DNA of 64,000 nt. Origin: Cyanidioschyzon merolae (taxonomy: Eukaryota). Below, in pieces: positions 1-53,487 of this stretch. Position numbers and translations under genes: made by a program. The stretch lies in the NCBI GenBank assembly GCA_000091205.1, contig AP006487.2; one strand, given 5' to 3'. The notes beneath the pieces were generated by a model that saw only the letters and a program-made list of their open reading frames with translations, ran no database searches and was not told the origin of the DNA. How positions within the stretch are numbered: position 1 is the stretch's first letter; the number at the start of each line of letters is the position of its first letter.

Positions 1-3000
1 CCCCCCATTCCCCCCATTTGCACGAGTCCTCGATGCGCGGTCTTCTCGGAGATTCGTTTAACGGCGCCCAGCCTTGTTTGCGTTGCTTGCCCATGGCTTT
101 CTCTTGTGGAATTGATTTCACTTGGCATTGTCCAATCATTGCTATCCACTTACATTTCAGCTGTGGTCGATAGCCGCAGTCGACACTTCGACTTCCAGTA
201 AACGGTATTTTGGAATGTGACTTAGACATCCGTAGCGATACTGGAGACCAATCTTCTGCTTACTTATACCTATTCCGCTTACTATCCAGCTGGTATAGTT
301 TTGTTCAAATCCGATAGGTTTCAGTTTCTTCACGTTCAGCACTCTCCATTCTGTCAGCTTACGTCTTTCTATCTCTTTGCCATTTTATTCCTCGGGCTCT
401 CTTTGATGACGTTTTGTACTTCAGCCTTCCTTTTTCTGCCACCCAGGGAGTATGAGCTTCTGCTGAATTTCGCCGATGGCCTACGATTCCGTAGCCATGG
501 TGTACTGCCCGACTCTATTTACATCGGTAAAGTGCTGTGAAACAGTTGGTATCGGTCGTTTTCTTGTTTTTGTATTTCTTGGCCTGGTGTGAGCCTTGTC
601 TTTATGTCCAGGACGCATGGCCCGAAACTGCATTTTCCTTCTATGCCTTGGTTTTTCTGTGCGTTTGCAGCCCAGCGCGCCTTGGCGTCCCGGGTTGACC
701 GCCCAGACTCCTTCGAGCACCAGCATGTTTCACGGTTCGGATGACGTTACCTTCTTCTCACATGGCATTTTCTGGTCCTTGCGAGTTCTTTGTATGGTGC
801 TTCAATACTCTTCTTTTGTTGCATCTTTTAGCGCCCAACATTTGGATTTCGCAGCAGTAAGTATATGCATTTTTCTTTGGCGGGTTATTTCATGTAGGTT
901 GGACGTTGTGCGTTGCTTAATCCATGTAGAATGTCATCTCATATTCATCATGGATTCCAACGCATTGCGCTCTCTTTAATGTTTCTGGGCAACAGTGTAC
1001 GATTGCTGTTTTCTACTGAACGATACTGCAGTCGCGGGTACTTCTGTGTTGTCCATTGGCTGCTATTGGAACTTTTACCTATGTCGCACTAGTGCATGCA
1101 TTGTATCGACTGCGATCGACTCACCGATGATCCATATTGCCTGCGTTCCGCTTCCGACATATTCTCCATCGTCGGCCTCTGGAATCTGCGAGGAGGACAA
1201 ACTGTTCCACCATTTACATTTTGCTTCTCGGGCTTCAGGTTGCAATCACTGGAATAGATATCGAATGCTTCGTGGGCTCCTACTCTATTTGAGTCTGTAT
1301 ATACACTATTACATACTCTGTCACCCTTTTTTATGCGCAAGATAACGCACAATACCATACCGCTTAGGATAACTGTGTGGCAGCAAATATGAGAGTCAAA
1401 ATTTAGGAATAAACATTCGGTCCAGGCGTAGACTTTCAGGCACAAGTCATTCAATCCTGATTTACCATCGATGCATCCACTGCCCCGACGGCTCATGCCC
1501 GTGAAACTGGAATCCTTGGCTTCCATTCCGATATCCTCTTCCCGCACTAACCCCATATGTGCTCTCGAAGTGGATCATCACCAGGACCTTATCTTGATTA
1601 CAGTACTGCGAGCTGCTATGCAAGGTTTTGCTTTTGTACTCGGTGCCAGGCTGCTATCGCTGCACAAGATGCCTGATCATGCATTTTCTCGTTGCGTACC
1701 CCTATCGGTCCAAAATCACTATTCCAACCATCATTATGCAGACTGACAAGCTCTTTTGACCACTTTCAGTATGCCAAGTCTATTGACTATGACAAACTAC
1801 TGCATTAGCGATCCATTCACCTCATCTGCAAGCACCTACTTCATGGCCGCCACGAATGAAGCGTAAATTTGATGTTCCGCCCGTCCACAGCTGGTACTAT
1901 CATTCGGCTATCATCATGACACCTCTGGTACCCTTTCTGCCTAGGGTTGCATCTTAGATCCGTCGCACCGGTGCTCGCAAGCGTGCCAGAGCACAACGCA
2001 CGCCGTCTCTTGCGACACATGCGACCCGGGTCAACCAACGAAAACACCGTCAACAACCAAGAGCCCCGATCGCGCCGGCTATTGTTGCCTTCCGTCTACA
2101 CTCAAAGCGATCCTGGTCGGCACTGCAGGGTCTCGCTAGTTCAGGTCAGCATCCAGGTTGGCGTCGCTTATTAAGATCATGTCTGCGAAAAGCACCTCAA
2201 TCCTTTACACTATTAGTCGGTGGCCGCCCCGTTAAGATATTGCTGCGATGGCGTTCATATGATCAAAGAAGCCGCGACTGTGTCAATCGTGAAGCTTGAG
2301 ATCTTTTTTATTCGATACATCTTATTCTGCATCTCGGTGTCTTTCTTAACAGGAGGACAAGTCTCCGTTCATCGGCAGTAGTCTCAATCGTCGGGGATCT
2401 CGCCACGACCGTGCACACATTCGATAGGTACGGTTATAAAGTAAGAGCTCTTAGGTTGCCTTCAATTCTGCTCGCCGTGCTGCGGTAACTCTCACTTTGG
2501 CTAGATTCGCCCCCTGGATCTCGCTGTGCGCTCTATCCTGCCTCTACGCTTTAGCACGCTTGCGGCATTTCCATGGTCTTATAGCTTACTTGCGCCCTCT
2601 GCTTGGACTCATTTTCTCGACAACAAGCCCAAATCGGGACTGGATCCCAACACTGCGCTACAGTCCTTCTTGTACACGTTTTGTCCAACAGAGAGCAAGC
2701 AAGAGTCTGGGAACTTCTGAGACGACCCTTCCGCATTTGGAGCAGGCAATATGCGCTTTCGATGCTAGAGCTGTACATGCGCTCTGATGCTGGTAACTCT
2801 GCGACTTGCTTACTCAGCGACGCTGCTGCAGATGAAATGGATTCATTGATATGTACGCTTACCCTAGGGATACCGTATTCTGGTGAAATGTTTGTTGCAC
2901 GGATCGAATTGCACTTGCTCTGGAACTACTATTCGTGGGCAGAACCCATGCTAGTACATCAATCCTATACTGCATACATCCGTCTGTGTCGTTGCGGCCA

Positions 3001-3352
3001 AACTCGCTAGTCGCAACCTGTGCACCGGGTTTCCGGGGCAACGACAGCAAAGATTTCCAAATCAACGACGTCGCCGTAAAAGCAATATTCATAGGCACGG
3101 TCGTGCTCATAGGAAATCATTCCTTTACGTTCCGAGAGAGATTTCCTGTCCAGTCGTTCCATGTGTATAGCCTCTGAATCACGACCCGTGGGCAGGATTT
3201 CTGAACACTCTCCGCGCACATCTGCAGCCGTATTCATTTATTCATTCATACGTATTCACTCATCTTGTGTATATGTCTGCAACATTGTCCTAACAGAGGA
3301 TCAGCATAGACGTGATATAGACCTTAAACGACGTAATCGTCAACGCGCATAC

Positions 3353-6058
3353 TCAAGCAGACACTGAAGCTGAACCCGAAACCGATGCTGACGCACTCGC
3401 AGACATCGTCGCAGACACCGCCGCAGACACCGTCGCAGAGGGTGTCGCTGTCGCAGCCACGGGACTCGGAGTCGGTGTTGGACTAATCACCACACACTGG
3501 TTGTTGATGCACTCCTCGTCAGCGCGGCAGCAACGCATCTTGTTCACAAGGTTATCCGAAGGGATCAGGTACGTCCCGCACTGCTTCGTAGGGTCCTTGC
3601 ACACACAGAATGACGGCAGCAGCACCTGTTGTTGTTGCTGCTGTTGTTGCAATTGTTGCTGCAGTTGCTGGTTATTGTTGTTGCTGAACGGGTTGTACGT
3701 ACAGTTCTGCGTCTCGGCGTTGCAGCACTCAGGGCCGCAAGCAATATAGCTCGAGTTCGATACGTTGCCGTTCGTGCCGCTCAGCGAGTTCGACACATAC
3801 CCGTAGGTCTGGCACACGTACTCGGTCATCGGCTGGAAGCACTCGTTGCCGAGCCCCAGGCAGCAACCAGCCTCCAGGCACTGCTGCGGCGAGTAGCTCG
3901 TGCGCTGCGTCCCGTGCTGCTCCCCGTACAGAAGCGTGTTCAGCAGACGCACAAACTGGTTATTGTTGATGTTATTGTTCAGCTGCTGGTTCTGATTCAC
4001 CGCGTTCGTGCACGGCTGGCGCTCAAACTCGCCCACCGCGCACGTCTTCTCGGGCTGGAAGCAGTACGGGTTCGACGCAAAGTCGCTCTGCTGCTTGCCG
4101 TTCTGCACCCATTGGTTCTGCGCCTGCGAGTCGTAGCAGCAGCCCTGGGCATAGCACGTAAACTGGTTGATACCCGCGTTGCCGCACGGCTGGCGCTGCG
4201 CTCCCGGTGACGGGCAGACGGGAACCGGTGCCTGCACCTCCTGCAGCGCTACAGAGGCCTGCGGTGCATGGTCGATGTCGTAGTAGCACCAGGGCGCGAG
4301 GATGCCGTTCGCTGTAGGCTGCCAGCAGCATCCCGGTATCGCAGTGCACTCGTCGGGGTAGATGTAGCTCCAGCCGCAGGGGACACGTTGCGTCACTGGA
4401 ACAGCGCTGCACGCCGCTGAGACGCTCTTCAGGGTGCACGCGTTTGTCTGGGAGTTAAAGCAGCATCCGACTTGCTCGCAAGCGTCCTGGTTGGTGTACT
4501 GTCCTGGAGAGCCGCAGATCTCAATGGTGCAGACTGGTGTAGGTGTCGGCGTGGGTGTCGGGGTCGCAGTAGCAGTTGGCGTAATTGTAGGTGTCAGAGT
4601 TGGCGTTGATGTTGGCGTAGATCGAGGGGTAGGTGTAGGGAACGTTTCTCTCAAAGCGAAGGCATCATTGAGAAAGCCATTTCCGCTAGTGTTTGAGTAT
4701 CCAAATCCGCCAAACATGACCGGATCTGTTCCACTGGTGTTCCAGAAAGCTGGTCCTGCTCGACCGCCGGGAGCAACACTCGGGTCGGACTCGTTCAATG
4801 CCCCGTATACTGCAGCAGCGTTCCCCGTTGAGCTTCCATTAATCCACGCCCATTGACCCAGTTCGATATCGAAAACCCATAGATCGTTCAAAAAAACGAA
4901 ATTCACACGGTCGTTTGCGTTCCCGCCACCGCCAAAGAGCTGCAGATTACCCGATGAGTCTACGAAACTTGAACCCGAGTCTCTTCCTCCAGGATAGTTA
5001 GTCGGTGCGAATTCTCCGAGAGTTCCATATGATCCTGGATTCTGAATCGTGGTATTCCCTGCAATGAAAATCCACGTTAACTGACTTATGTTGTAGACCC
5101 ATAGATCATTCAACAGACCAGGGCCAGCTTGTGAACTGTTTCCGTATCCAATACCACCGAACAACCAGAGATTTCCACCAAGATCTGTCCACGTATAAGC
5201 ATTTCGACGTGCTCCTGGTGCATTCGTGGCATTAGCAACACCTGGTTCACTAAAGTTACCAGGCTCGTTGGGAGCCTGCGATCCGTCTCTGTACGCCCAC
5301 TGGAATGTGGTAGTATTGAATGACCAAAGGTCCGAAAATGATCCTTGATGTAAAGCTTCTCCACCGAACAGCCAAAGCAGGCCATCTGCGCCCAGCCAAA
5401 ATGCCGCGCTATCTCGGCCTCCGGGATTGTAAATTTGGCTGTAGATATCCTTCGGTCCATAGACTGGCATGGCGTTGAAAGTATCATTCCCACCGAACCA
5501 CGTCCAGATTCCCGTTTCAGTATCATACTGCCACATATCGTTCAGGTCGCCAACACCGTTTCCAGTCTTATCGAAGCCGAGTCCTCCAAACAACCAGAAA
5601 TGCTGGTCGTCCGTCTGCCAATACGCACTTCCGTAACGGCTGCCGGGTATATTATTTGGGCTGCCTGTGCCGACTGTGCCATACACTCCCGGTTGGTCGG
5701 CTTCTGAGGAACCCCCAATCCATGTCCATTCAAGTGAGGTCAAGTCGAAGGTCCATAGGTCATTTAGGTAGCTCGCAGATGGGTTTCCACTGCTAAAACC
5801 ACCAAATAAGTAAAGTGTATTTGATCTTCCGACCCAAGCTGCTGGATATTCACGACTTCTTGGGGCACTCCCAGCAGAAGTTTGGTTAAGCGTTCCATAA
5901 GTACCAGGATTATTGATACCCGTCTCTCCACCTATCCAGGTCCAGCTAACCGTACTCACAGGCGACAACGCAGCTACAAGCGACACGGAAAACGTCGCCG
6001 CCAACAATAGACAAACAGCAACAACCAGGCCACGCGCCGGAGAAAGAGCTCGAAACAT
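3353..6058 (-). CDS. Secreted multidomain protein: signal peptide, six Kelch-type beta-propeller blades, Thr/Pro-rich linker, 4-5 trefoil (P-type)-like Cys-rich modules, polyQ/polyN tracts
   Basis: Uninterrupted 901-aa ORF with ATG at 6056-6058. N-terminus 'MFRALSPARGLVVAVCLLLAATFSVSLVAALSP' is signal-peptide-like. Six ~50-aa repeats carry Kelch hallmarks (W.W..G...PG.R...W...LFGG.G...NDLW.FD). Linker 'TPTPTPRSTPTSTPTLTPTITPTATATPTPTPTPTP'. Modules such as 'RVPCGWSYIYPDECTAIPGCCWQPTANGILAPWCYY' and 'QPCGNAGINQFTCYAQGCCYDSQ...NPYCFQP' fit the trefoil pattern R..CG...I...C...GCC[FWY]D...P[WY]C[FY]. CAG/CAA-encoded polyQ and polyN runs. Confidence 0.8.
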   Translation of the reverse strand: MFRALSPARGLVVAVCLLLAATFSVSLVAALSPVSTVSWTWIGGETGINNPGTYGTLNQTSAGSAPRSREYPAAWVGRSNTLYLFGGFSSGNPSASYLNDLWTFDLTSLEWTWIGGSSEADQPGVYGTVGTGSPNNIPGSRYGSAYWQTDDQHFWLFGGLGFDKTGNGVGDLNDMWQYDTETGIWTWFGGNDTFNAMPVYGPKDIYSQIYNPGGRDSAAFWLGADGLLWLFGGEALHQGSFSDLWSFNTTTFQWAYRDGSQAPNEPGNFSEPGVANATNAPGARRNAYTWTDLGGNLWLFGGIGYGNSSQAGPGLLNDLWVYNISQLTWIFIAGNTTIQNPGSYGTLGEFAPTNYPGGRDSGSSFVDSSGNLQLFGGGGNANDRVNFVFLNDLWVFDIELGQWAWINGSSTGNAAAVYGALNESDPSVAPGGRAGPAFWNTSGTDPVMFGGFGYSNTSGNGFLNDAFALRETFPTPTPRSTPTSTPTLTPTITPTATATPTPTPTPTPVCTIEICGSPGQYTNQDACEQVGCCFNSQTNACTLKSVSAACSAVPVTQRVPCGWSYIYPDECTAIPGCCWQPTANGILAPWCYYDIDHAPQASVALQEVQAPVPVCPSPGAQRQPCGNAGINQFTCYAQGCCYDSQAQNQWVQNGKQQSDFASNPYCFQPEKTCAVGEFERQPCTNAVNQNQQLNNNINNNQFVRLLNTLLYGEQHGTQRTSYSPQQCLEAGCCLGLGNECFQPMTEYVCQTYGYVSNSLSGTNGNVSNSSYIACGPECCNAETQNCTYNPFSNNNNQQLQQQLQQQQQQQQVLLPSFCVCKDPTKQCGTYLIPSDNLVNKMRCCRADEECINNQCVVISPTPTPSPVAATATPSATVSAAVSATMSASASASVSGSASVSA

Positions 6059-8826: not shown

Positions 8827-9908
8827 TCATCTTCGAAGCCAACACACTTTATTCAGGAAAAACGTATCCGACTTGAGACCTCGCCGCCGCAACGTCTGGT
8901 CGATCAGATCAAGGCTCAGTTCGTAAAGCTGATCTGCCTTGTCGATTTCATACGTTGGTTCAATGACCTGCGGTTTCGTCTTGTCTCGACCTTCCGTATA
9001 TTTGCCACGCCACTGATAATACGAGCCCGAGTCAGAGAACCGTCCCTGGGTCGCCATTTCGGCTACGCGGCGGCTGGCCCCATCATTCGGAACGTATTGC
9101 CGAGTGATGTACTTTTGAAGAATCGGGAAGAAGACGTAGCGGAACCAGCCACGCTTTTCACGGAAGAGGTTGCTATCGGCGACACATCCCGGGAAAATCG
9201 CTACAGAGGTCACCCCGTCGCGGCCGTATCAACCACTAAGCGCCTTCATTGTCAACACGTTCGCCGCTTTGGCGTCTTTGTAGGCTTATGTGGGCTCAAA
9301 CGGACCACTGTCCACCATGCCCGTCGTCTGCGGATCAAGCCCCGCGGCTAGACCCAACAAATCACCGAGACGAGCCTGCGGGGAATCTTTCCCGGCAACG
9401 AATTCGGCGAATGGGTCTGAGTCGTCAGAAACACAATGCGCCCGCGCGATATTTTCAGCTTCGGCAACAGCTCCCGACAGAGAAGCAAATGGCTCAGATG
9501 GCAAACCTGTATGGCCTTCTCGATGCCGTCCACCATGAAACGCGGTTTCTTGTACCGCGGATGCTATATTGCGGCATTGCAGATCAGCGCATCCAGGTGA
9601 TCAACGCGCGCTACTCTCGATAGCCCTCTCACAAACTCCAACACAGAGGCGAAATCAGCCAGATCACAATACAGCACTGTATAGGCGTCCTTTGGAAGGT
9701 TCACGCTGTTTGCTGCGCGTTCCGCCGGATCAATGTCACGACATGCCATGACGATATGCCAGTTGCCCTTGTTGATCAGAGCGGAAGCTGCATACAGATC
9801 GACTCCAGAGGACGCGCCGGTGATCACGGTGATCTGCGACTGTTTCGGACCTATACGAAGATGTAGCGCGTGGTGTCGGCGCGCTACAGGCGAACGCTGC
9901 ATTACCAA
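8827..9908 (-). pseudogene. Light-dependent protochlorophyllide oxidoreductase (POR)-like short-chain dehydrogenase, disrupted by two in-frame stops and one frameshift
   Basis: Four minus-strand ORF pieces (9564-9908, 9348-9536, 9286-9504, 8827-9213) align colinearly to POR: 'VITGASSGVDLYAASALINKGNWHIVMACRDIDPAERAANS' (POR GKWHVIMACRD signature), 'CHLSHLLLCRELLPKL', 'PQARLGDLLGLAAGL', 'IFPGCVADSNLFREKRGWFRYVFFPILQKYITRQYVPNDGASRRVAEMATQG'. Pieces 1/2 and 3/4 are each in the same frame, separated by a stop (TAG at a conserved Tyr position near 9565). Pieces 2/3 differ by a 1-nt shift in a 'gggaaag' run near 9385-9395. Confidence 0.6.
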
Positions 9909-10443: not shown

Positions 10444-10530
10444 CTTCGTCAGTTGGAGACGATTCGCCTAGGGCGGGTTTCTCTCCACCATTGTACACCG
10501 CTGGCGTCGTTTGACTCTAGAACGGCGTTT
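10444..10530 (+). repeat. Solo copy of the ~85-nt 3'-terminal block of the Fanzor-like element (candidate transposon right end / omega-RNA-like region)
   Basis: About 80% identical, same orientation, to 13835-13920. It includes the shared core 'ggcgtcgtttgact(c)tagaacggcgtttg'. No upstream nuclease ORF is recognisable here. Confidence 0.5.
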
Positions 10531-12656
10531 GTTGTTGGCGGTGTGGGCTCGATGTACGGGTTAGGCTCTTGAAAATAATCTTATAGAGTAGACTAGAGTA
10601 CGTTAGGCGCTTTTGTCGGGTTCCTCGATCGCGCCAGGCGAGATGCGTCGGTCAAACGCCGTGCTACGTATGGACGCTCTATATGTGATATGCCTCTACC
10701 AAGATCGCCGTATCCGGAGGACGAGGCAGGCACCATAAGCTAGACAACGACGGCAGCATGCAAATGGCTTGAACGCTCATCAGTACGAGGCCGTGACGCC
10801 CGGCAGAAGCAAAATTCGGCTCAGTCCCCTATTCCAGCGTCCGTTCAGTATGCATAACAAGCACCCGGATAAAACGTATATCCGTGTTCAGGAATCCTAC
10901 CGCGCCTTTTTTTCCGATCAATAAAACTAACAGAAATCCTATCGAGTAGAGTGCTGGATACCTCATCCGCACGAGCGCAGGATACTACGGTGGCTACGCG
11001 TATGCTGGAATCATCGCGGAGTTTCGTGCCGGGCTCCTGCATCTCTATGTATGCCACTGCGGTGCTGCGATGGGCAGTAGCTTCGGCACCAGCGACAGAG
11101 TCTATAGCAAGAAATTATTCTACGTGAGTTTTCGATCTAGGACACTTGATTTCCGCTGCAGCGCGATGCGAACACGCATGTCCCAAGGCGGGGCGTCGGA
11201 CACGTGTCCTTCATCGATCGGTGGGGCGTCTCGCGCGGTGCGTGCATCGCGCCGGTGAGCGCAACTGGGAGATCGGGCAGGCATGAAACACGATGTGCAT
11301 GCCGTTGTGGAAGGGAAACGTGATCTCGATCAGAAGCGTGTTGTTCTGCTGTAAATATTTTTATTGCGTTGAGTTCATAGCAGAGTACGGCTTTTCAGTT
11401 TATTTCTGTTTCAGCCCTAAAACGAGTCTAGTCAAGCGTCTTGTCGCAGTAAATAACTGAAGGGTTCAAAGAGTGTTTTTTCTCAAAAAAACAAAAAAAG
11501 GAAAGCTATGAAAAAGCAAGTCGACGATCCAGGGGGGCCCGGAGTCGCCAGCTGCCAAAAAAACAAAAAAGAATACCGAACCCAGAAGGAAAGGTAGAGA
11601 AAAAGGAAGCAAAAGGTGGAGGCCCCACGACGAAGGCGCCAAAAAGACAACTGTACAACGAGATGGTGGTGAAAGCCTGTCTTCTTAAACACTCCATGGA
11701 TCCGTACAGGGAAAAGTTGCGAGACGCTATCAAAAAAGTGCTGCGTCATACTCCAAAAGTATTGCCAAGGCGTCGTCAGGACTGATGCATTTGGCGGGGA
11801 AGATGTATCGAGATGTGACGCACATGGAAATAGTCAAGATTTTGGACGAGTTTTTCGACAAGACTTTTATTCGACACCTGATGCTTGGTAAAGAGGAAGC
11901 GCGGAGTGAAAATGGGCGGATGCACGTCCTCCACGAAAACTTCGCCAAAATCCGCTTCGAGGGTACTCGATACAAGGGCGACGCGGATATTTACATATAC
12001 GGGGCGATGAAGTACCTCACGAATCTGCAGAACCATTTGACAACAAACCTCGAACGTTTCATGATACGCGCCGTGGTTGCACTCTACCCGGGCATCTCTT
12101 GCAATAGGAAAGGGGCGATGATCAACGGCATCACGAATGATCGCAAGCATGAACATGAGATCGAGTTCGTCGACGTGAAGGCGTCAAACAAGAGCACGAA
12201 TGAAGGTTCTGTAATCCGTGCGGTTCTATATGAGCACCGTGCGGTACTGGGTCTGGCGAATCCAAAAGACGTGGTATCAGACTTGAAAAGGATGAAGTAA
12301 GATACAATCGCCTCGTCCTGCGGTATTTCATGTTTCTGGACCGAGAGCTCGAACGCGAAGCGGAGATGAAGCAGAGTGAAAAGACATATGAAGAGTGGGA
12401 GAGACGGAAGGCTTCCCTAATGGGTAAGCGCTTCAACGTAGTTCGAATGCGCAACATCAAGTCACATTTCGTGACTATCGACTCCAGAGTCCTTTACGGC
12501 ATCATGAAGGAGATCCGTCCGGAGTTCAATGTTAGCAGGGAGGAATTTTCCGGTGAAAACCGAGAGACGTGCTGAAAGAGTATCTTCGATTTCAAACGTC
12601 TCAAAGTGAGCGAACAAAAGGTATTCACTGGGTTGATCTAAACCGATGGAGTAGCC

Positions 12657-13529
12657 TTGTGTATACACTATCGGCGATTGAAGAAAGATCGGCCAGTCCC
12701 TCCCGCGGCTGCGCCCGTGACGAGGGATGAAGAAAAGGAGGCGGCTCGTCCTGCGACACAGGAGGTGGAGGAGAATGACCTCGTCGTTGGCGTGACGAAG
12801 GATGAAGATGAGAAGGAGGCGGATCTTGCGACGCAGGAGGTGGAGGAGACTGACCTCGTCGTTGGCGTGACGAAGGATGAAGATGAGAAGGAGGCGGATC
12901 TTGCGACACAGAAAGTGCAGGATAACGGCTTTGTCGTTGGCGCGGACCCTGGGAATACGAATATCATAACCATCGCTGCTCCCAAGCGCGCGAGAGATGG
13001 TGCTGATGGTAACTTACTCCAGAAAGACATGCGTTTTTTGAGGTTCTCACGAGCGAGATACTATCGAGAACCGGGAATGATGAATGCGAGGAAGAAAATT
13101 GGTACGTGGAATGTAAGAATGAAGGATCACCTGGAAGCTTTAAGCGAGGTGACTAGCCGAGGAGCGGACTTTGGAGCTTTTCGGAAATTCATGGAAATTC
13201 GTGTTGCCCAATGGGATGCACTGTGGGAGGAGTATACGAAGCCCCGGTGCGCTCGTCTGCGATTGAGTCTGTATTGTAGGAAGCAACGGGCGTTCGCGAA
13301 TTTTTTTAATCAGTTGAGCGCCTTGAAGGAGGATGATGGTCAGAGGCTCGTAATAGCGTATGCAGCAGGGCGCTGGGCGTCGAAGAGAGGGACTACACCA
13401 GCACCAACGACGAGGGTGTACAAGGAGTGTGCACGGCGTTTTGATACAATACGGATAGACGAGTTCCGAACATCGTATACACATCATGAACTGGATTGTG
13501 CACTCCAGAGAGTGGAGATGGAAAAGTAA
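12657..13529 (+). CDS. Fanzor/TnpB-like nuclease core fragment (RuvC-I/RuvC-II region); probably non-functional as a stand-alone ORF
   Basis: 290-aa ORF (track start is TTG). Contains 'DPGNTN' RuvC-I and '[18 protein letters not shown]'. Internal 60-bp tandem duplication encodes '[24 protein letters not shown]' twice. Confidence 0.55.
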
Positions 13530-13580
13530 CAGACAAGCCTTGAGGATATAGCAAAGTACGGACCGCTGACCGAAGAGCAA

Positions 13581-13859
13581 ATGGAAAGGAGGGCAAAAGT
13601 TCGTGGACTCCTTCCATTAGTACGTACAACCAATGATGGCAAGAAACGCATGGAATTCGTGAACCGTGACTTTCATGCCGCTATCAATATAAGGAAATAT
13701 GCGGTGCTGGAGAAGAGACCTCCAGAGCTGCCAAAAGTGAATTTTTTTGTACAACCTTCCAAAATTGAATTATTTGAGAAAATATTGGAAGCGGTAGTGG
13801 GTGGCCGGTCCAAAAACACGGGGTGGCGTCTGCACGTCAGTCGGAGACATCAGGTCTAA
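13581..13859 (+). CDS. Fanzor/TnpB-like C-terminal fragment (RuvC-III motif)
   Basis: 'MEFVNRDFHAAINIRKYAVLEKRPPELPKVNFF...', in frame with 12657-13529 but separated from it by TAA. The homologous C-terminus recurs at 30660-30742 (minus strand) and 57700-57929. Confidence 0.55.
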   Translation: MERRAKVRGLLPLVRTTNDGKKRMEFVNRDFHAAINIRKYAVLEKRPPELPKVNFFVQPSKIELFEKILEAVVGGRSKNTGWRLHVSRRHQV

Positions 13860-13973
13860 GGCGCCGGTTGGCGCGTCTACTGTACACAGTCGGCGTCGTT
13901 TGACTTAGAACGGCGTTTGGCCGCGTTTCACTTTACCGCAAAACTTCGGTACTCTGAAAAGCGATTTCGTGCA

Positions 13974-24650: not shown

Positions 24651-25587
24651 ATCGAATGGAAATGCGTGCGCTTGCGTGTGCATCGGACAACGCACTAGCC
24701 GAGACTTTCACCCGAAAGAATCCTGTGATTTCAGGTTACGGCACCGGGTACAGAAACGGAAAAGGGCATCGAGCGGAACCTAATATTCAAGTTGCTCCAA
24801 CGCGTCGTGCAGCGGAGGCAAGTCTGCATACGCAAACTGTCCGAGCACAAATCGACAACGAGACTCGATCATGTGTCGGGTGAAGCAGGCTCTGAACCGA
24901 CGCCCTCTGTGGTATGGCAAAGCTGTTCTGCCTTCGTGCTGCATCAGCACCAGTGGTGTACGTGCCATGGCGGACGCTCGCGATATGCACTCGGAGCAAT
25001 ATAGAGCGTAAACAATATGCGGTATCCCCGAAGTAAAGGATGGTTAGTGGTACTTGGAAGTAGATGGAACGATGGATGCTTCATCGTGCGCTGAGAACAA
25101 GCGCACTGTTGGGGATCGCTGGTCTGCGTGAACATTCCGTCAAACAAAAAGAAGCAAAATCGAGCGCGCTCGCACGAGTTTTGTGAATGCGCAAGTCAAC
25201 GCTATCCGGACCCCAGCGATACGTACCGGAAGTTACATGGGGTGACGTCTTTGCGAGCTCAGTGCTGTGGAGCTGGAACCGCAGCTTTAAGTATCTACAG
25301 GGTTGTGCCCAAAGGCACCAATGTCGGAATACTTTCAGCGTGTCATGAACCACCGTTTCCAGGTTTGGATTCAGAGCTACCGCTGCGATGCCGAATCTTC
25401 ATCTCGATGCATCGCAGCAGAGTTTTCCCGTTCGGTAAACTACGACATATGAGGTGTTTTCGCATGACCTGCCCAGTGACATTGCGATCGGTTTGTACGA
25501 AGGTTTGCGGCGGCGGCGCCCTGTCGAACACCAAGAGGCATTATTTGCAAAGGCTAATATCGGGCAGGTACCGGTGGACCCTATCTA

Positions 25588-26706: not shown

Positions 26707-27644
26707 GGTTCGCAGCAAAATAGCCGTTCAGTTCCACTCTGAACAAATACACGTTCTTGCTTTGTCAGCGCCAGCAGCGATGTGCACAGTGAAGATGTTT
26801 TAGCGTAATAGACATCTGGCTGCTTCGCAAGGCCTACCTTCCCGCACACATGATCGTCGATGCATGCGCATCGCGCGACTGTCATCGACACCAGAAGAGA
26901 GAATGACGACTAATAGACAATTCTGTACAAGATTGCTTTCCCGCTCTAGGGTGAGCGGTGGTACGTCGAAAAGTTTCCCATGTTTTCTATCGGATCCTTA
27001 TAGTGACAAGGTTTCGCGAGCAGGACAAAGCTGCCGGTCTTTCGCTCCGTGCCCCCCCGCTGGCGGGTGCTAGAGTGAGACCTCAGCTGCTTGTCCGTAA
27101 CAAAGCACATTCTGGGACTAGGAGCAGGCTGCTGCGTCTGGGCGTCGGTCTGGTTGTGGTGGACTCCCAGTGTAACGCTTCGCGCTGCCGCAGGTGGCAC
27201 GTCTGTCCGCAAAGCCTACAGACTACCAGAATAGTGACGAATCCCGATCCCGTTTGGGATCAGCCTCAGCTCGAGCCGACGCTTTCAGTTGTATGGCAAA
27301 GCCGTTCTGTCTCCGTTCTGCATCCGCCCGGCCGTATGGGCGCTATGGCGGGTGCAGTAAGGCAGGCGCTCGGCGCACGATAGAACGTTCGGAACGACCA
27401 TCTCATCCGAGAGGATGTAATGGAGCTTACAGGTAGAGAGCGGCATAATGGACGCTTTCCCGAAAGCGATTACCTATCGCGCAAGCTGATAGCCGTGGCC
27501 AAAGTAAACGTATTTTCAAAACAAATGAGTGGGACCGTCTATACGCCTCCAGCGCTTGTCCGTAGCGACAGAAGCGTGCCACCACGCTACCCAGGGCAGC
27601 GCCCGGAAAGCATGTGGTGGAAATATGGGAACACGTGACCACTG

Positions 27645-30228: not shown

Positions 30229-30549
30229 GCGTGCGAGTCGTCGACAGCTGCTGGCTGTCTCTTGCTGTGAATCTTACAAATTTAGTCTTTCCAGAAACAC
30301 GCTTTTGACCTCCCAATACGTAAAAACGGGACCAGGGCGAGCATGCACGGTTCGTATTCTGACAAGTCCGTAGAGCGCGCCCAACTCTAGCGAGTAACCC
30401 TGCAGTAGAGCTGTCAGAGAGAATGGCGGGCCCGCAACACCCTCCGGGGCACTCACTGCACTGCTGCGCAGTGTCGCGATCATGGTCAAGAATGGATTGC
30501 GATCCATGATGGTTAATGAATACCCGATCGTAGACGCTTTCCAGCCTTT

Positions 30550-33000
30550 TTGACCGACTGACTGCTATCAGCTTCAGTTTATCCAGGTATGCTTCGATCA
30601 TAAGAGGATGTTTCTCAAACATGGCTCGCGTCAGGTCCTCGGGTCTCTTCCTCAGCGCCACACATGGTTTGATGTTGACGGAGGCGTTGAAGTCTCGGTT
30701 AACGAACTCCTTGTGTGCATTGCTGCTGCTTGAACTGATCATTGCAAGGAGCGCTATACATCATGCTCTCTTCGCAACTACACTCTCGTCATCGTCCCGT
30801 CGCCCAAACACTTTTTCTCGTCCATATCCTCTCTCCTTCGTCGTCTTTTGCTCGTCTTCGCTCGATGATCTATGAGAAGAAGATTTTTCCATTTGTGTGT
30901 CGAACATGGTGATGGAGGCCCTCCAGGATCCCCGACTTCTATGTCCATACCTTTTCCTTCGATTTTTTATCTTTGAAAATGAACGCTCTTGTTTATGCGC
31001 ATAGTTGAGGACCTTCCCGAAGAAAGAGAGACTTGCGCAAGCTCGACGACGTGTGCCCCGGTGTGTCACCGTGTGCTGAACGCTTCAGCGATTCGCCCAG
31101 TAGAGCGATCATCACACGTTCCACATTAGAAAGGAGTGCTTTGATAAGGCCGCGCCACGGTGCGTACGGAGGAATGAAAAGCTGCTCTCACCCCCGCAGA
31201 ATTGGCACAGCTCGAACGCAACAGGAATGGTGAAATGCTACGTTTCCAATCGAAGGACATTGCCAGTCGTCACGGAAAAAGTCTTGAATGATTCGATAAA
31301 AAGAGTGCTGTTGTGTGAGCCTTCTCTATTTGTGAAACTGAGGAACCGAATGGAATCCAATGCAGCTGGAACAGATGATATCCTCGTTCTTTTCGAGCTC
31401 TATCGTACATACAACGCGCTCCTTCTCCTCGAATAACCGTGTACGTTCTGGTCGTTTTTCTCCGAGGAAAGTCTCATCTACTTGCAAAACAAATCAAAGT
31501 CGCTGTGCTTCATGCCATTCGCGAGGCTCCAGGAGTGCTGCAGTTTCGTTTTCGGTGGAAGATGGCCATAGTTGAACTGAGACTCTTTTTGGCGAGTGTA
31601 TCCCGGTGTTTTCAGGACCACACGAACAAGCTGTTGAGAAACAGAGAAGCCCATAGCGGCTACGATCTTCGCTTTTTGCTTTCCGTGAAAGTTGACCAAC
31701 GGGTTGTTCTCTACCATTGGCTGCAAGCTGTCTCTACGAGTACCGGTTTGTGGCGCGAAGTGCATCTACTTTCTTTCGATGCTGCTGAACCATCTGAGTA
31801 CTGTGGTATGACTGAGCTGAAGGAGCAATGCAGTCCTCTTTGCACTGTTCAGTAAAAAATATGTATACTTCAGGCAGTTCGTCTACCATCTTTCCAGCGC
31901 ATTGTATCGTGATTGCGACCGCCTAATATACACCGCAGCCGGGTGGATAAAGATTGGGTTAAAAGACTCTGGCTAAGGAGGGCCGACGTACCCGGTACCA
32001 ACCGGCGTAGGTCGTATGCCGGATGGTTGAACAAGTCACAGATGCTGAGCGATACAAGAGTACGCGGAAAATAAGATTCCAAGGGTTTTGTGAAATGTGG
32101 AAGCATCTCTATGACGAGAACTGACGCCATTTGCAACATTACTAGCATTCTTCGCGCGTTCGAATACGCTGGTTCTAGTCACGGGTACTGCACCAACACG
32201 AAAACCCGGTACGGTCCCGGGACGGAGCACTCCCAAATGGCACCGCTGTCGCTCGAGCGCGCCTCTGGCCATCGAGAGGCGAGGTCTCCATGACAAGCAC
32301 CTAAGGCCAGACCAGATTAAAATGGGATGCTGAACAGCTCGAGTTGCCTGTGCCTTTCGATTTCTTTTACAGACCCTTTTAGTAGTAGAGCCTCGAAAAT
32401 TCGAGGTATAGGAGTGAGGGTTTACGGACTCACAGCTAGTTTTCGGATTCTTGTTCGTCTAGTCTGAGCGGGTACTTTGGCGATTTAGAGTCGGAAATTG
32501 CTACAGAGTCAAGATGACTCACAATAGACTTGGACTAGTGCCAGAAAAGTAACCAATGACATCATCCAATTCACAAGTACAGACCACCACTGTTCTCTTC
32601 ATAATAGATGTAGTGTGCTCATATTATATATTCTTTGTGTTCTCGATCTTTCTCTTACAGAGCAACTGGCTAGCGTACGAATGAGGTCGGCTGGATTGAT
32701 GACGAAAAAACCTCGACGTCGTTTCTTGCTGAATTCTTCAAATGCTCGCGCCAAAAGTTTATGGGATGCGTCACTCCAAATCCTCGACTCTGTTCGGGAG
32801 AGAAATCCTCCTCGTTTCGTCGCCATTGACGAAGCTGAATTCGACGGCAACATGAGAAAACTCACGGGAGGTGCTCACAGAGACTTCGTTCTCTTCTATC
32901 TGCATGTAAAAGGGTCTTGGACTCGGATTTTAGTCATAGCAGTGATCGCTCCTGGAAGGGAATACCTCATCGCCCGGCAAGAAGGGACCGTAGCCGAATA
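30550..33000 (-). mobile_element. Fanzor/TnpB-like element copy 2 (degenerate, minus strand)
   Basis: 30660-30742 (minus) encodes 'HKEFVNRDFNASVNIKPCVALRKRPEDL...', homologous to copy 1 'MEFVNRDFHAAINIRKYAVLEKRPPEL...'. The upstream piece 30761-31069 has '...FDTQMEKSSSHRSSSEDEQKTTKER', comparable to copy 1 'QRVEMEK..LTEEQMERRAKVR'. The 3'-terminal nucleotides 30540-30600 are homologous to 13790-13850. Upper boundary (~33000) is approximate, and frames are broken throughout. Confidence 0.45.
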
Positions 33001-42059: not shown

Positions 42060-42269
42060 TGCGGAGAAGCTTGTCTACTGGGTCTTGCTATAGCGGAACG
42101 CACTCATTCAGCGCTTTCCGTCCCTTGGTATCCGAAGCCGACCCAAGTGTCATCGTGTACGCGATGTTTCGTAAACCTCGCCGCGGTAGCCCGCGGATCA
42201 TGTACCGTTGCCTGGCCTCAGGATGGAGCGAGTTCGAAACGAAAACAGTTGCCTGCAAAAATATTAAAG

Positions 42270-42872
42270 AAAAAATGTGCCTGGTGGTGTCAGAATCCAA
42301 CAATTTTGGAACTAGAAAATAGTTTTCTGAAAAGATGTTGACAGAAAAAGTGCCTGGTGGTGTCAGAATCCAACAATTTTGAAACTAGAAAACAGTTGTC
42401 TGAAAAGATGTTGACAGAAAAAGTGCCTGGTGGTGTCAGAATCCAACAATTTTGGAACTAGAAAATAGTTTTCTGAAAAGATGTTGACAGAAAAAGTGCC
42501 TGGTGGTGTCAGAATCCAACAATTTTGAAACTAGAAAACAGTTGTCTGAAAAGATGTTGACAGCAAAAGTGCCTGGTGGTGTCAGAATCCAACAATTTTG
42601 AAACTAGAAAATAGTTTTCTGAAAAGATGTTGACAGAAAAAGTGCCTGGTGGTGTCAGAATCCAACAATTTTGAAACTAGAAAACAGTTGTCTGAAAAGA
42701 TGTTGACAGAAAAAGTGCCTGGTGGTGTCAGAATCCAACAATTTTGAAACTAGAAAACAGTTGTCTGAAAAGATGTTGACAGAAAAAGTGCCAGTAAGTG
42801 TCAGAATCCAACAATTTTGGAACTAGAAAATAGTTTTCTGAAAAGATGTTGACAGCAAAAGTGCCTGGTGGT
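42270..42872. repeat. Minisatellite: ~61-bp unit x ~10 in the SRalpha / DHRS12 intergenic region
   Basis: Unit '(g)aaaagatgttgacag(a/c)aaaagtgcctggtggtgtcagaatccaacaattttg(g/a)aactagaaaa(t/c)agtt(t/g)tct' repeats head-to-tail. Each unit holds small hairpins ('agaaaa-tag-ttttct'; near-palindrome 'ccaacaattttgg'). Confidence 0.75.
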
Positions 42873-43943
42873 TTGTTCACATCGATGGTGCCTTCACGAT
42901 TACAGGCTCACTCCGATGGACGTGGGCCTCTCGCACGCCAAAGCGAGTATAGTTGGCTCCGAGGCGTACCACGCGTTGAAAGGTTGGTATCGTGCTCAAA
43001 TGAGCGCCCTATTGAACCAGTCCGTCTCTCGTCTATGTCAGAAACGACCGTCCAATGAAGCATTCTAAGACCCCCAGGAGTTTTCTCTGTAAAATCAGCA
43101 CTCGGGAGCGGAATCCTTCGGTGCTGTATGCAGTCCTGACGTGCAGCGCCGCCGCCTGCGACAGATACTGCTGCTGCTGCTGCGCCAGTTTGCATATAAG
43201 CGCGAGGTATTCCACGGAAGGACTGCTTTTCGCTGTTCTTTACCTGTTGATTGTATCGCTGGTATGTGAAAGCGATGGTGCGGCTTCAAAAGCATCGGTG
43301 TGTCTACGGTTTTACGGGGGCAGGGGGTTCCACGCAGTCCAAGCGGCGCTCACAAACGGATCGGCGAGCGCTCTGGGTTCAGCAAGCTCGCGTTTGCTGT
43401 ACAAAAAGAACGCCACTACAAAGCGGTGATCGTATTTCGAGAGAAAGAGGAAGCACCTGGATTCGATGCCGCGACTCGTAACAGTGCACAAGCGTATTTT
43501 GACAATGAAATGAGCATCGTAGATGACAGCATCGACGATATTTCAACGCACCATGGGATTCAGTGTGCAATCGGCGTGCCAAGAGGAGCGCCTAACAAAA
43601 GCATGCATCCACGGAACGTTCGTCAATGGTTGCGAGCACGCGCATAGGCTGCTCATGTGCCCCGAAAGAAGGCACAGGGCTAGAACGTGCAACAGGTGCA
43701 GCGCGAATTTGCCGCTACCCCTCATTCGCAGGAAACGACAAGCGGTGTGTCGGTACCCTGTATCGCACAACGAATACACATTTCGGAAGCAGAACAGGCC
43801 AACATAGCGCCTCTGCTGATGCATCAACAGGATTTGGAGAAAGCAGCACGCTGGCCTTTGTCTCTGAGCCGGGGGCTCACATCCGTATACCCCACCTGTC
43901 GTGCATTCCGCATTAGACACGATCTTGATGCATAGGTGGTGCA

Positions 43944-49520: not shown

Positions 49521-50704
49521 ACGCGCAAACTATACTGATTTTTCTGCATGAGCTCGTGAAAAAAGCCGTCAATGGATGAGGTCGAGCCCTTTTTCTCCGA
49601 AATCATAATACACAAAATGCTGCGCACACACGAGTTGCAACAGAAACATCCAATGTTAAGCAATATGTAGTTCGAGCATGCTACACGTAAGAAAAGGAGA
49701 AACGCGGATACTCGTACGTATCCATTGCATGATGATATCCACTACTGAACGAACCCTCGTTCTAGAGCGTCGCCAGCCATCCTGACTCAGATGACGTTAC
49801 AAAAAATCCTGCAGCAAAGCGTCCGCGGCGCGACTCCGAACAGGCTCCTGAGAATCCTAAAACTGCACATGAACACGTAAGCCCTTTTTCCTGCAGTTCG
49901 AATGTCGGCGTTGTACATCTTATAATGGTTCGAAAAATCGAAAGGCAGGCAGAAGCCAGCAGTTCTGTGCTCTATTTTTATTTGGCGCGGATGTCGAGCG
50001 CATGGCAACCAGCGACGCATGACGTCTGCCGCGGGATCGAGGACCCTATCCGAAGAACCCCAGTTGCGCAGATCTAGTGGGCAGTTAGGAGCAAACGACC
50101 GCCGTTCCCTTCTAGATTCCTCCATTCTTTCAAAGCTGTCCAGACGAGCCTAGCCGATGCCAAGAGAGGCTTGAGCGATCCACAACAACCATGCGGATAC
50201 CGCGGACGCCTTGCGAGGCCGTGACGGTGCCGCTACGCCTCAGCGGACTTCGACTAGAGACGAGGTTCGTTCAACAGGGAGATTCGGAGCTCGTCGTCGG
50301 CTTCGGACGCCAACTGGCATTACTGACAGCTTCGCTGCATGCAGCAGCGCGGACGGCCACACGAGAGGAACGCAGTGACCACAGCAAAACGGAGGCGCTG
50401 AGCACAGTCCGCCCCCGTTCACAGTCGCAGGAACATGTGTACAACGCTGTGGAGCGGCGCGAGCGACGCAGCGGCACGCACCACTGCGCAAGTACGCTGA
50501 CCACTGTACAGACTGATGGGTACACTTCACAAAAACTCTCTGCATCGAATGTAGCGTCGTCCAAGTCTCGAAAATACTACCAAATACCGCCTCTATCCGA
50601 TGGAAAACCAGGAGTGGTGTTGTTGGTACCCAGAGGACGCTGGAGCGGAGCATGCCACGCTTCCTCGGGTAGCGGGAGCCCCGTGTCACGCCCCTAGCAT
50701 ATGC

Positions 50705-50870
50705 AATATCCATGCATGAATGCTTGGATGCACGGATGCATGAATGCTTGGATGCACGGATGCTTGGATGCTTGGATGCACGGATGCTTGCATGCACGGA
50801 TGCACGGATGCTTGGATGCACGGATGCTTGGATGCACGGATGCTTGCATGCACGGATGCATCACCGATCA
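50705..50870. repeat. 8-bp microsatellite (WYGGATGC)n, ~20 units, ~310 bp upstream of the dynamin start
   Basis: 'ttggatgcacggatgcttggatgcttggatgcacggatgcttgcatgcacggatgc...' The period of 8 is not a multiple of 3, so the ORFs reading MHECLDARM... across it are artefacts. Confidence 0.75.
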
Positions 50871-51180
50871 TCAAAAAAAACCACCACAGCACCAGAAGCT
50901 AAGGCATCGATGAAATCGGACACGCTGGCACTGGACCTGCGCGCCATCGGAGCGCGCTGCTGTCCGTGGGCGCCACCGGCGCCATGCGCGCGTGCACGGA
51001 TCGCAGTGTGCCTTCGAAAGCGTTCGATGCAGGGCAGCGATCGCGCTGGTGTCCGCTTTAATGCTGTGTCCAGAATGTCCGAAACGGACGGTACGCCACC
51101 GTTCCCGGTGCTGCACGAAACGTTGACAACGAGGCTTGGCGCTCTGGGTACGCGTTGCTCGGGCGAACGCGACAGGCTTC

Positions 51181-53487
51181 ATGGAGCGCCTAATACCTAT
51201 CGTAAACAAACTTCAAGACCTCTTCGCCGAGACTGGGTTAGACAGCCCAATCGACCTGCCACAGATTATGGTGGTGGGCGCCCAGTCCTCGGGAAAGTCG
51301 AGCGTATTGGAGAACGTTGTAGGAGAGTCCATTTTTCCGCGTGGTACGGGTATTGTAACGCGCCGCCCCATCGTTGTTCAGCTTTACTGCACAGCGAGGG
51401 AGCGGTTGAATCAGTCGGGAGCCCCGGATAACATGTTTAACGAGGACGGAAGCTATGTGCTGTCGGATGGAGCGCCAACGGACCCCCGGTCGATTCCGCC
51501 GGGCGCGGAGAACCAGGCATATGCAGAGTTTCTGCACAAGCCCGGTGTGCGCTTCTACAACTTTGACGACGTGCGCGCAGAAATAGAACGAGAGACAGAT
51601 CGCGTTACTGGAAAAAACAAGGGAATAAGCCCGAAAGCGATCAACCTGCGGGTGTACTCACCGCACGTGGTGAACCTCACCGTCGTCGACCTGCCCGGAC
51701 TCACCAAGGTCCCGGTCGGAGACCAGCCGTCGGATATCGAGCGTCTCATTCGCGCTATGGTTTTGTCGTACATAGAGCGTCCCAACGCGATTATATTGGC
51801 TGTGCACCCGGCTACAATGGATCTCGCTACGAGCGATGCGTTGCAGATAGCGCGCCAGGCGGACCCAGAGGGGCGACGCACGCTGGGTGTCATCACCAAG
51901 CTCGACCTGATGGACAAAGGAACGGATGCCATGGAGATGCTGACCGGGAAGGTTATCCCTCTGAAACTGGGTTACATTGGGGTAATCTGTCGTGGGCCCG
52001 CAGACCTGCGAGCTGGTAAATCTATTCAACAGGCGCGAGAGGATGAAATCCGTTTCTTCCGCTCCCATCCGGTGTACAGACGTCTGCTGCCACAGCTGGG
52101 AACGAATACGTTAGCACGAACACTGTCAACGCTTCTTATGAAGCACATTCGTGACACGCTGCCGAGCATACGCCAGAAAATGTCGCAGCAGCTAGCAGAG
52201 TGGCGCAAGGAATTGCAGACGCTGGGACCTGCGTTTGAGGGCGCTGACGATCTCGGTGGCGCCCTCCTCAATGTTATCAATAGATACTCGTCGGAGTTTG
52301 CAAAATCGCTGGAGGGCAACTCACAGCAGACGGTGAATACCCAGGAGCTTTATGGCGGTGCGCGCATCAATTACATCTTCAACGACATTTACGCGAAGGA
52401 GCTGCAGTCGATGAATGCGTTCGAAGGCCTCACTCGCGAGGATATCCGCACAGCAATCCGCAACGCGACAGGTCATCGCAGCCCGCTTTTCGTACCAGAG
52501 CTCGCTTTTGAGCTGCTCGTCAAGAAACAAATTACCCACTTTGTCCCGCCGGCCTACTCCTGCGTTGACTTGGTCTACGACGAACTCGTGCGTCTCGCGC
52601 TGAACTGTGAAACAGAGTTGCTGCAACGCTATGAGAATCTGCGCTCCGAAATCTTGGCTTGCGCGCAAAACCTGTTACGCGAGTTGAAACAACCGTGTCT
52701 GGAGATGGTTCAAAACCTCATCGCCATGGAGACATCCTACATTTCCGTGAATCACAAGGATTTCATCGGCGGCAACAAAGCAATGAGTCAGCTTGTGCGC
52801 GCTCGCATGGAAGAGGAAGAGCGCCGAACTAGATCCGCGAAAGCTGCGAACAGTACGGACAACGCCGCGAATAGTGCACCGAAAGAGAGCAACGCAAACG
52901 ACAATCGCATTCTTCAACCTCGCCGGCGAAACCAGGACGAAAATGCGAAGAAGAACGACGATGCCCGTCGCAAGGATGACAAGTCGCCGAACAAGACCGA
53001 TGCGTCGAACGCCGAGAAGGACGCGCGCTCTGACCGGAACCCGCGCGGTGACCCAACGATGGACAACTTTTTCAATGAGGCGGACGAGGACGAGGAAGAC
53101 GGCAACGAACGCCGGAACCGAGGCTTACACACGCTCCCGTCGGTGCCGGAACACCTCAAAGCAGGCGAAGTATCGAGCGACCGCGATCGGGATGATATCG
53201 AGCTCATCCAGACGCTTCTTGCGAGTTACTTCGATGTTGTGCGGGTCAATATGATGGATATGGTACCAAAGGCAATCATGAGCTTCCTGGTGCTCCGCGC
53301 CCGCGACCGGATGCAGTCGCGTCTGGTCGCTGATCTCTACAAACCCGAACGTATGAGCGAACTGCTCAACGAGTCAAGCGACGTAGCGGAGCGACGTGCA
53401 ACCGCAAAACGAATGGTGGACCTTCTCCAGCGCGGTATGGCGGTGATTAACGAGGTTCGAGACGTTCACGTCAAAGAGGAGATTTAG
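51181..53487 (+). CDS. Dynamin-related protein (Drp1/Dnm1-like large GTPase)
   Basis: 'MERLIPIVNKLQDLFAETGLDSPIDLPQIMVVGAQSSGKSSVLENVVGESIFPRGTGIVTRRPIVVQL' is a dynamin G domain, followed by a middle domain, a Lys/Asp-rich variable insert and a GED ('...DIELIQTLLASYFDVVRVNMMDMVPKAIMSFLV'). Track start 51136 is TTG; ATG at 51181. Stop is TAG at 53485-53487. Confidence 0.9.
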   Translation: MERLIPIVNKLQDLFAETGLDSPIDLPQIMVVGAQSSGKSSVLENVVGESIFPRGTGIVTRRPIVVQLYCTARERLNQSGAPDNMFNEDGSYVLSDGAPTDPRSIPPGAENQAYAEFLHKPGVRFYNFDDVRAEIERETDRVTGKNKGISPKAINLRVYSPHVVNLTVVDLPGLTKVPVGDQPSDIERLIRAMVLSYIERPNAIILAVHPATMDLATSDALQIARQADPEGRRTLGVITKLDLMDKGTDAMEMLTGKVIPLKLGYIGVICRGPADLRAGKSIQQAREDEIRFFRSHPVYRRLLPQLGTNTLARTLSTLLMKHIRDTLPSIRQKMSQQLAEWRKELQTLGPAFEGADDLGGALLNVINRYSSEFAKSLEGNSQQTVNTQELYGGARINYIFNDIYAKELQSMNAFEGLTREDIRTAIRNATGHRSPLFVPELAFELLVKKQITHFVPPAYSCVDLVYDELVRLALNCETELLQRYENLRSEILACAQNLLRELKQPCLEMVQNLIAMETSYISVNHKDFIGGNKAMSQLVRARMEEEERRTRSAKAANSTDNAANSAPKESNANDNRILQPRRRNQDENAKKNDDARRKDDKSPNKTDASNAEKDARSDRNPRGDPTMDNFFNEADEDEEDGNERRNRGLHTLPSVPEHLKAGEVSSDRDRDDIELIQTLLASYFDVVRVNMMDMVPKAIMSFLVLRARDRMQSRLVADLYKPERMSELLNESSDVAERRATAKRMVDLLQRGMAVINEVRDVHVKEEI

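Follow-up and report, generated by a model that had tools for sequence, protein, structure and literature searches.

Fanzor1 and Fanzor2 were defined by Bao & Jurka (2013, Mobile DNA 4:12; PMC3627910), who listed one Fanzor1 family, CMe-1A, for Cyanidioschyzon merolae. Its consensus of 3169 bp represents approximately 150 copies, which individually share approximately 80% identity with it. The element has no terminal inverted repeats (TIRs), its target-site duplications were undetermined, it encodes a single-exon protein of 734 amino acids, and its first 635 bp correspond to another repeat, TE-N2_CMe (PMC3627910). According to the same report, some CMe-1A copies are still intact and the coding capacity has been retained over a long time. 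The closest systems with solved structures are the Fanzor1 proteins of Spizellomyces (SpuFz1, 8GKH), Parasitella (PpFz1, 9CF0) and Guillardia (GtFz1, 9CER), and the residues D383, E541 and D606 of SpuFz1 bind metal in the solved complex (PMC10432273). Here, we describe an element located at approximately 10555-13922 on the plus strand of a 64,000-nucleotide stretch of the C. merolae genome (contig AP006487.2; hereafter, the window). It is, with high confidence, a degenerate and non-autonomous member of the CMe-1A family of Fanzor1 transposons. The presence of Fanzor1 in C. merolae is already known, both the literature and Repbase having recorded it since 2013. In the part of the post-2023 Fanzor literature covered by term searches, no mention of C. 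merolae, red algae, zinc fingers or Helitrons was found in the preprint by Yoon et al., and the term 'rhodophyt' was absent from the Nature paper by Saito et al.

The consensus DNA and protein sequences of CMe-1A were taken from the supplements of Bao & Jurka (2013) and compared with the window. In the blastn alignments, positions 11271-12792 matched consensus 671-2193 with 82.2% identity and positions 12866-13895 matched consensus 2117-3145 with 85.0% identity, while the last consensus position (3169) was reached at 13915 in a global alignment. Most of the consensus (671-3169) is thus represented, at an identity that fits the published copy-to-consensus figure of approximately 80%. At the protein level, the CMe-1 sequence matched the window with 59-72% identity in tblastn, including 72% across residues 260-731. 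The concatenated window translation was 68% identical (E = 0) to P0001, a 752-amino-acid protein from a Joint Genome Institute (JGI) metagenome. The host is the one in which the family was described, and the element is multicopy; at least seven further fragments of the CMe-1A family or of TE-N2 were identified in the same 64-kb window by blastn and tblastn with the consensus. A metagenome scan additionally yielded 487 stretches in which a relative is encoded; 80 were retained, and these showed 82-92% identity to the consensus C-terminus. The window copy therefore shares with CMe-1A the genome, the single-exon open reading frame (ORF), the 3' end and the lack of TIRs. It differs in lacking the TE-N2_CMe-like 5' 670 bp, which are replaced by an alternative 5' region of approximately 700 bp, in carrying three units of a 75-bp repeat instead of one, and in the nine lesions of its ORF. 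Two older and more diverged remnants of a Fanzor1 C-terminus were also noticed in the window, at 30532-30990 (minus strand) and 57645-57923 (plus strand). Both showed 39-45% amino-acid identity to CMe-1 residues ~633-729, and the former carries an internal deletion that fuses consensus ~937 with ~2859.

The core of the element spans 11271-13922 on the plus strand and comprises consensus 671-3169 followed by approximately seven conserved bases. Among 58 distinct aligned tails, conservation extended to consensus position 3169 plus approximately 7-12 nt and then collapsed, which places the 3' end of the window copy near 13922. The first-pass annotation, made from the sequence alone, had delimited the gene at 11490-13925; the locus was right, but the element is larger, as the consensus homology starts at 11271 and a subfamily-specific 5' region reaches back to at least 10555. 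This non-coding region (10555-11270, plus strand) substitutes for the first, TE-N2_CMe-like 635 bp of the consensus, and blastn and alignment revealed no similarity between it and consensus 1-670, which is missing here. Both in the window and at six independent metagenome loci (L049, L067, L080, L006, L012 and L013; 73-81% identity), it directly adjoins the core. Since the same 5' region is common to six independent loci, the window copy is part of a subfamily whose 5' region differs, and since this region replaces consensus 1-670, it is a subfamily variant rather than a strict type A copy. Immediately upstream, a solo CMe-1A 3' tail (10447-10537, plus strand; consensus 3086-3169), including the hairpin region described below, was 78.6% identical to the consensus tail and 72-88% identical to the tails of more than 40 loci. 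The same order of tail and 5' region was found in L049 (154-249), whose downstream flank is unrelated. The arrangement was thus copied as a unit, for which tandem insertion and read-through are possible origins. L049 was considered as the orthologous locus of another strain, but this was rejected because its downstream flank is unlike the SMT3 region that follows the window copy, and it was regarded as an independent copy. Copies or fragments of TE-N2_CMe itself, equivalent to consensus 1-635, were located at 26932-27518, 24873-25081, 53764-53871 and 60104-60285, all on the minus strand and 72-76% identical. In some metagenome loci, the TE-N2-like 5' part is absent, and in others it borders the core at its 5' end in one orientation or the other, which suggests that the published CMe-1A consensus is a composite of a Fanzor unit of approximately 2.5 kb and an independent element. 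A weak Rfam match to Hammerhead_II in the 5' region (10768-10821, minus strand), whose 25.8 bits (E 0.08) fell short of the gathering score, had no counterpart at the six homologous loci and was dismissed as due to chance.

The relationship of the CMe-1 family to characterized Fanzor1 proteins was established with family profiles and a structure prediction. When 1.84 billion cluster representatives were searched exhaustively with HMMER, 3694 relatives were obtained (E up to 1e-3), including 476 at E <= 1e-30; a second, word-indexed homology search added nothing beyond further close paralogues. A family profile, A2, was derived from an alignment of 52 sequences, P0001 included. When compared with the PDB, its only significant matches were the Fanzor1 proteins of Parasitella (9cf0, E 1.2e-26), Spizellomyces (8gkh, 1.7e-20) and Guillardia (9cer, 1e-14). 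A narrower profile of nine sequences (A1) had no match in the PDB; it matched the published Fanzor1 proteins VCa-1, CVu-1, CRe-1 and CRe-4 from Volvox, Chlorella and Chlamydomonas, with the motifs in register. The Pfam family PF07282 (Cas12f1-like TNB domain) was detected in 20 of the 52 members of A2 (best E 9.6e-11), through the motifs that flank the zinc-finger site. The protein modelled was P0001, the 68%-identical relative, and not the broken window copy. Its AlphaFold2 (AF2) model, built on the A2 alignment, reached a mean predicted local distance difference test (pLDDT) score of 82 and a predicted template modelling (pTM) score of 0.79. In agreement with the Fanzor1 fold (WED, REC, RuvC and NUC domains), the solved SpuFz, PpFz and GtFz structures occupied ranks 1-7 in Foldseek (E 6e-17 to 1.5e-13, TM up to 0.72), and the next matches were Cas12, TnpB and Fanzor2 at E ~0.01-0.1. 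The CMe-1 clade thus shares domain order and fold with SpuFz1, PpFz1 and GtFz1 (target-normalised TM 0.70-0.72), although the sequence identity to them is only 12-15%.

The active-site motifs follow one another in the canonical D...E...D order on the plus strand, within the frame extending from 12300 as far as the stop codon at 13857-13859, as the first-pass annotation had read them. The RuvC-I aspartate (codon 12945-12947, in GADPG) is invariant in the 52 sequences; it corresponds to D484 of P0001 and aligns to SpuFz1 D383. The RuvC-II glutamate (13461-13463, in IDEFRTS) is likewise invariant, corresponds to P0001 E656 and aligns to SpuFz1 E541 in LLDEYKTS. The RuvC-III aspartate is encoded at 13668-13670 in NRDFHAAINI (EFVNRDFHAAINI), where R724 of P0001 is invariant and D725 nearly invariant, and in the HMM alignment the NRD of the CMe-1 family is matched to that of the solved Fanzor1 proteins (SpuFz1 D606). 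The window copy and the solved proteins therefore have in common the RuvC D-E-D triad within GxDPG, DE[FY]xTS and NRD. The Lys-rich leader resembling a nuclear localization signal (NLS) was also found as proposed, in the form of a Lys/Arg-rich stretch after the ATG at 11508. The assignment to the TnpB/Fanzor family, which rested on these motifs, was borne out by the A2 profile, by the predicted fold of P0001 and by the nucleotide identity to CMe-1A. Of the checks proposed for it, the profile hidden Markov model (HMM) search recovered the solved Fanzor1 proteins through the 52-sequence profile, the window translation alone remaining unmatched, and structure prediction, run on P0001 rather than on the concatenated fragments, gave the Fanzor1 fold. 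As an HMM match exists and the motifs stand in the right order, the Fanzor/TnpB interpretation holds. Two details of the initial motif reading were wrong: the RuvC-II glutamate had been described as not evident, and IDEFRTS, the motif that contains it, had been labelled as the zinc-finger position.

The zinc finger itself sets the CMe-1 clade apart from the solved Fanzor1 proteins. A C4 finger (OrfB_Zn_ribbon/TNB) between RuvC-II and RuvC-III is a defining feature of the Fanzor/TnpB motif of Bao & Jurka (PMC3627910), and the CxxC...CxxC finger of the NUC/TNB domain in the solved proteins is missing from the CMe-1 clade. A CxxC is retained by only six of the 52 members, and neither the window copy nor the CMe-1 consensus, which reads ...EKC...LALVSTT in this region, contains a CxxC pair. 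The first-pass annotation was correct in reporting that the cysteines were absent, but not in taking their absence as a sign of decay, as it is clade-wide and includes the consensus. Judged from the aligned sequences, the CMe-1 clade has lost the C4 finger and kept the motifs on either side of it. This clade, which comprises Fanzor1-like CMe-1 relatives of ~600-650 amino acids, nearly all of them devoid of the finger, also keeps a conserved RGLLWC-ST motif together with the D-E-D triad.

The multicopy, transposon-encoded nature of the CMe-1 family, with many degenerate or ORF-less copies, is shared with the SpuFz1, PpFz1 and GtFz1 elements, but SpuFz1 loci carry inverted repeats of 30 nt, whereas CMe-1A has none. 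The similarity to bacterial TnpB of IS200/IS605 (ISDra2, 8H1J) and to Cas12f comprises the RuvC core and a subterminal hairpin at the right end of the element, and by analogy an omega RNA derived from the right end would apply to CMe-1A as well. In contrast to those systems, to which the similarity is at fold level only (Foldseek E ~0.03, 274 aligned columns), CMe-1A has no TnpA partner, resides in a eukaryotic host and encodes an NLS-like leader, and its protein, in which a large N-terminal half is helical and REC-like, exceeds theirs considerably in size. The hairpin of the window copy (CGTCGTTTG ACTTA GAACGGCG; 13894-13915, plus strand) lies directly before the 3' end. Its folding energy as RNA was -10.8 kcal/mol (z = -3.5), whereas its reverse complement reached -3.2 kcal/mol. 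A comparable hairpin, of one or the other of two sequence types, is formed by most of 54 related copies, with a mean of -8.9 kcal/mol for the sense strand versus -5.5 kcal/mol for the complement, and z fell below -2 in 28 of the 54. The structure could represent the right end or the terminal stem of an omega RNA or, just as well, serve as a transposition signal for an element of the HUH or rolling-circle type. The ORF ends only ~60 bp before the end of the element, so any omega RNA scaffold would overlap the coding sequence. No Rfam family matched the element.

Several results weigh against the identification of the element as a Fanzor1 nuclease transposon with its own guide RNA. The window translation had no significant match in Pfam and none in the PDB by phmmer, and P0001 alone likewise had no significant Pfam or PDB sequence match. 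The link to Fanzor1 is therefore transitive, running through the broad family profile and the predicted structure of a relative rather than through this copy. Because the CMe-1 clade lacks the canonical C4 finger, the nuclease competence of even its intact members is putative. At the 3' end, an explicit count of base pairs over the 54 copies gave covariation in the hairpin and in a GGCG/CGCC stem that did not exceed that of shuffles, and RNAalifold, applied to the last 250 nt of the 54 aligned 3' ends, detected hardly any consensus structure, with no compensatory changes and no more than seven pairs that were invariant or nearly so. With covariation no better than in shuffled sequences, a conserved omega RNA structure is not claimed.

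The disrupted Fanzor1 ORF occupies 11508-13859 on the plus strand and is the pseudogene equivalent of the 734-amino-acid CMe-1 protein. The ATG at 11508 aligns to the start codon and the stop at 13857-13859 to the stop codon of the consensus ORF (906-3110). Upstream of 12300, the coding sequence moves among all three frames owing to six frameshifting indels identified by alignment to the consensus: +1 at 11531, -2 near 11556, +1 at 11586, -1 near 11637, -1 near 11732 and -1 near 12285. Three premature stops follow on the same strand, namely TGA at 12573-12575 (TGG, Trp, in the consensus), TAA at 12639-12641 (GAA, Glu) and TAA at 13527-13529 (TGC, Cys). With nine disabling lesions relative to the consensus, the ORF is not intact, and the earlier view that the copy is decaying was confirmed. 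The two stops at 12573 and 13527 had already been recognized; the counts were too low, with one frameshift instead of six and the TAA at 12639 missed. The internal tandem duplication, previously given as 60 bp, proved to be a 75-bp (25-amino-acid) unit in three tandem, in-frame copies (12716-12940, plus strand; repeat family D5), compared with one copy in the consensus. Among the related loci (L001-L081), this acidic, DEEKE-rich unit is present in 1-6 tandem copies. The equivalent region of P0001 (residues 373-470) had pLDDT values below 50 in the AF2 model, and the repeat is accordingly predicted to lie in a disordered linker between the REC-like half and RuvC-I. In view of the in-frame variation in copy number and the disordered linker, the 75-bp repeat is a variable-number coding repeat and not a lesion.

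By homology with SpuFz1, GtFz1 and PpFz1 (PMC10432273, PMC11423790), intact CMe-1A members would encode a Fanzor1 of ~734 amino acids, a eukaryotic nuclease related to TnpB and Cas12 with a RuvC D-E-D triad and a basic, NLS-like N-terminus. Such a protein would associate with an omega RNA that originates by transcription from the 3' end of the element encoding it; the read-through flank would serve as the guide, and matching DNA next to a target-adjacent motif (TAM) would be cut. We infer that intact members act as RNA-guided nucleases, and likewise infer the position of the omega RNA and the way in which the element transposes. The window copy is no longer able to make the protein, because of its six frameshifts and three premature stops. 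Its 3' end might nevertheless act as a 'ghost' omega-RNA locus, in which intact copies would provide Fanzor1 in trans, a transcript of the conserved last ~250 nt would be bound by it, and the sequence directly 5' of SMT3 would be used as the guide. For SpuFz1, loci of this kind, without an ORF but still with the omega RNA, are on record (PMC10432273), the 3' end of the window copy is conserved like the remainder of the element (85% identity), and the subterminal hairpin is intact and stabler on the sense strand. However, the 3' conservation largely coincides with coding sequence, a conserved RNA structure is unsupported by the covariation analysis, and both the transcription and the activity of the intact CMe-1 protein on which this scenario depends are putative. 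We consider it unlikely. A somewhat smaller chance is given to the most far-reaching interpretation, namely that CMe-1 is an active, zinc-finger-less Fanzor1 clade in a thermo-acidophilic alga, with an omega RNA ending in the hairpin and with dead copies acting as ghost guide loci, so that the guide here would match the ~50 bp that separate the element from the start codon of SMT3/SUMO.

It is far less probable that the copy is a functional Fanzor gene whose interruptions are overcome by means of small introns, programmed frameshifting or stop-codon read-through. All three catalytic codons are still encoded, and the ratio of nonsynonymous to synonymous substitution rates (dN/dS) relative to the consensus was 0.39 for the window copy and 0.33-0.43 for five other copies; together with the reported existence of intact CMe-1A copies (PMC3627910), these observations could be read in favour of a living gene. 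All nine lesion sites, however, are read through uninterrupted in the intron-less consensus and in the near-intact relatives P0001 and L016. The tiny introns that the first-pass annotation had left open are untenable, as the lesions are indels of 1-2 bp and stops created by point mutation in an intron-less gene, and introns are therefore unable to rescue the ORF. The locus also carries no annotation in the finished genome of C. merolae, an intron-poor organism with only a few dozen introns in total. Most metagenome copies are likewise broken, at differing places: an open frame of more than 770 codons was present in only three of the 80 related loci. The dN/dS value and the retention of the catalytic codons are instead explained by descent from a protein-selected lineage, and they indicate that the lineage was under protein-level selection before the copy died and that much of the divergence predates inactivation. 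This result agrees with the remark of Bao & Jurka on long-kept coding capacity. The least credible proposal, that the resemblance to TnpB/Fanzor is due to chance or to another RNase-H-fold nuclease or transposase family, could draw on the lack of a direct Pfam match for the window translation and its closest relative, but is already refuted by a family profile that matches only Fanzor1 in the PDB (E down to 1e-26), by the Fanzor1 fold predicted for P0001 (E 6e-17) and by 82-85% nucleotide identity to a published Fanzor1 element.

The degenerate CMe-1A copy is thus a real finding, and the initial reading was correct in substance, but it is a dead copy of a family published in 2013 and for this reason carries little weight as a discovery. 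The additions are limited to the list of lesions, the alternative 5' region, the variable-number coding repeat, the clade-wide loss of the zinc finger and the candidate right-end hairpin, together with, as a minor point, the insertion ~50 bp 5' of the SUMO gene. As a positive control, the case is informative, since a reading of the sequence alone recognized a highly divergent family of RNA-guided nucleases that Pfam did not detect in the window sequence. For Fanzor specialists, minor points of possible interest are the loss of the CxxC finger throughout a clade that kept the D-E-D triad and a dN/dS of ~0.4, the interchangeable 5' regions and the variable-number 25-amino-acid repeat in a predicted disordered linker, and the sense-biased hairpin directly before the 3' end, the place at which the end of an omega RNA scaffold is to be expected.

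The eukaryotic nuclear context was confirmed by five window ORFs that exactly match C. merolae 10D proteins: BAM79243 (trefoil-like, 3353-6058), BAM79244 (Smt3/SUMO, SMT3; ATG at 13974, plus strand), BAM79250, BAM79253 (MetRS) and BAM79254 (SR-alpha). The Fanzor copy sits within an unannotated gap of 7.9 kb between BAM79243 and BAM79244, which have consecutive accession numbers, and the finished genome contains no annotated protein from the trefoil-like gene to SMT3. From the 3' end of the element (~13922) to the SMT3/SUMO ATG at 13974, both on the plus strand, there are only ~50 bp. At this distance, the SUMO promoter and 5' untranslated region (UTR) must lie within the transposon or have been shaped by it. 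The same gap contains an ORF of 114 amino acids (9564-9908, minus strand) that corresponds to the N-terminal ~88 residues of light-dependent protochlorophyllide oxidoreductase (POR), with matches to POR chains in the PDB (E ~1e-22) and to adh_short in Pfam (E 2.5e-08). It is probably a gene fragment or pseudogene and was possibly carried by a repeat. Elsewhere in the window, a tandem array at 42127-43002 consists of ~12 copies of a 73-bp unit with up to 99% identity, and a second array at 50687-50884 is built of an 8-bp unit (GGATGCAY/TGGATGCT-like), with an ORF that has an ATG start (50712-51431) overlapping the 3' end of the array.

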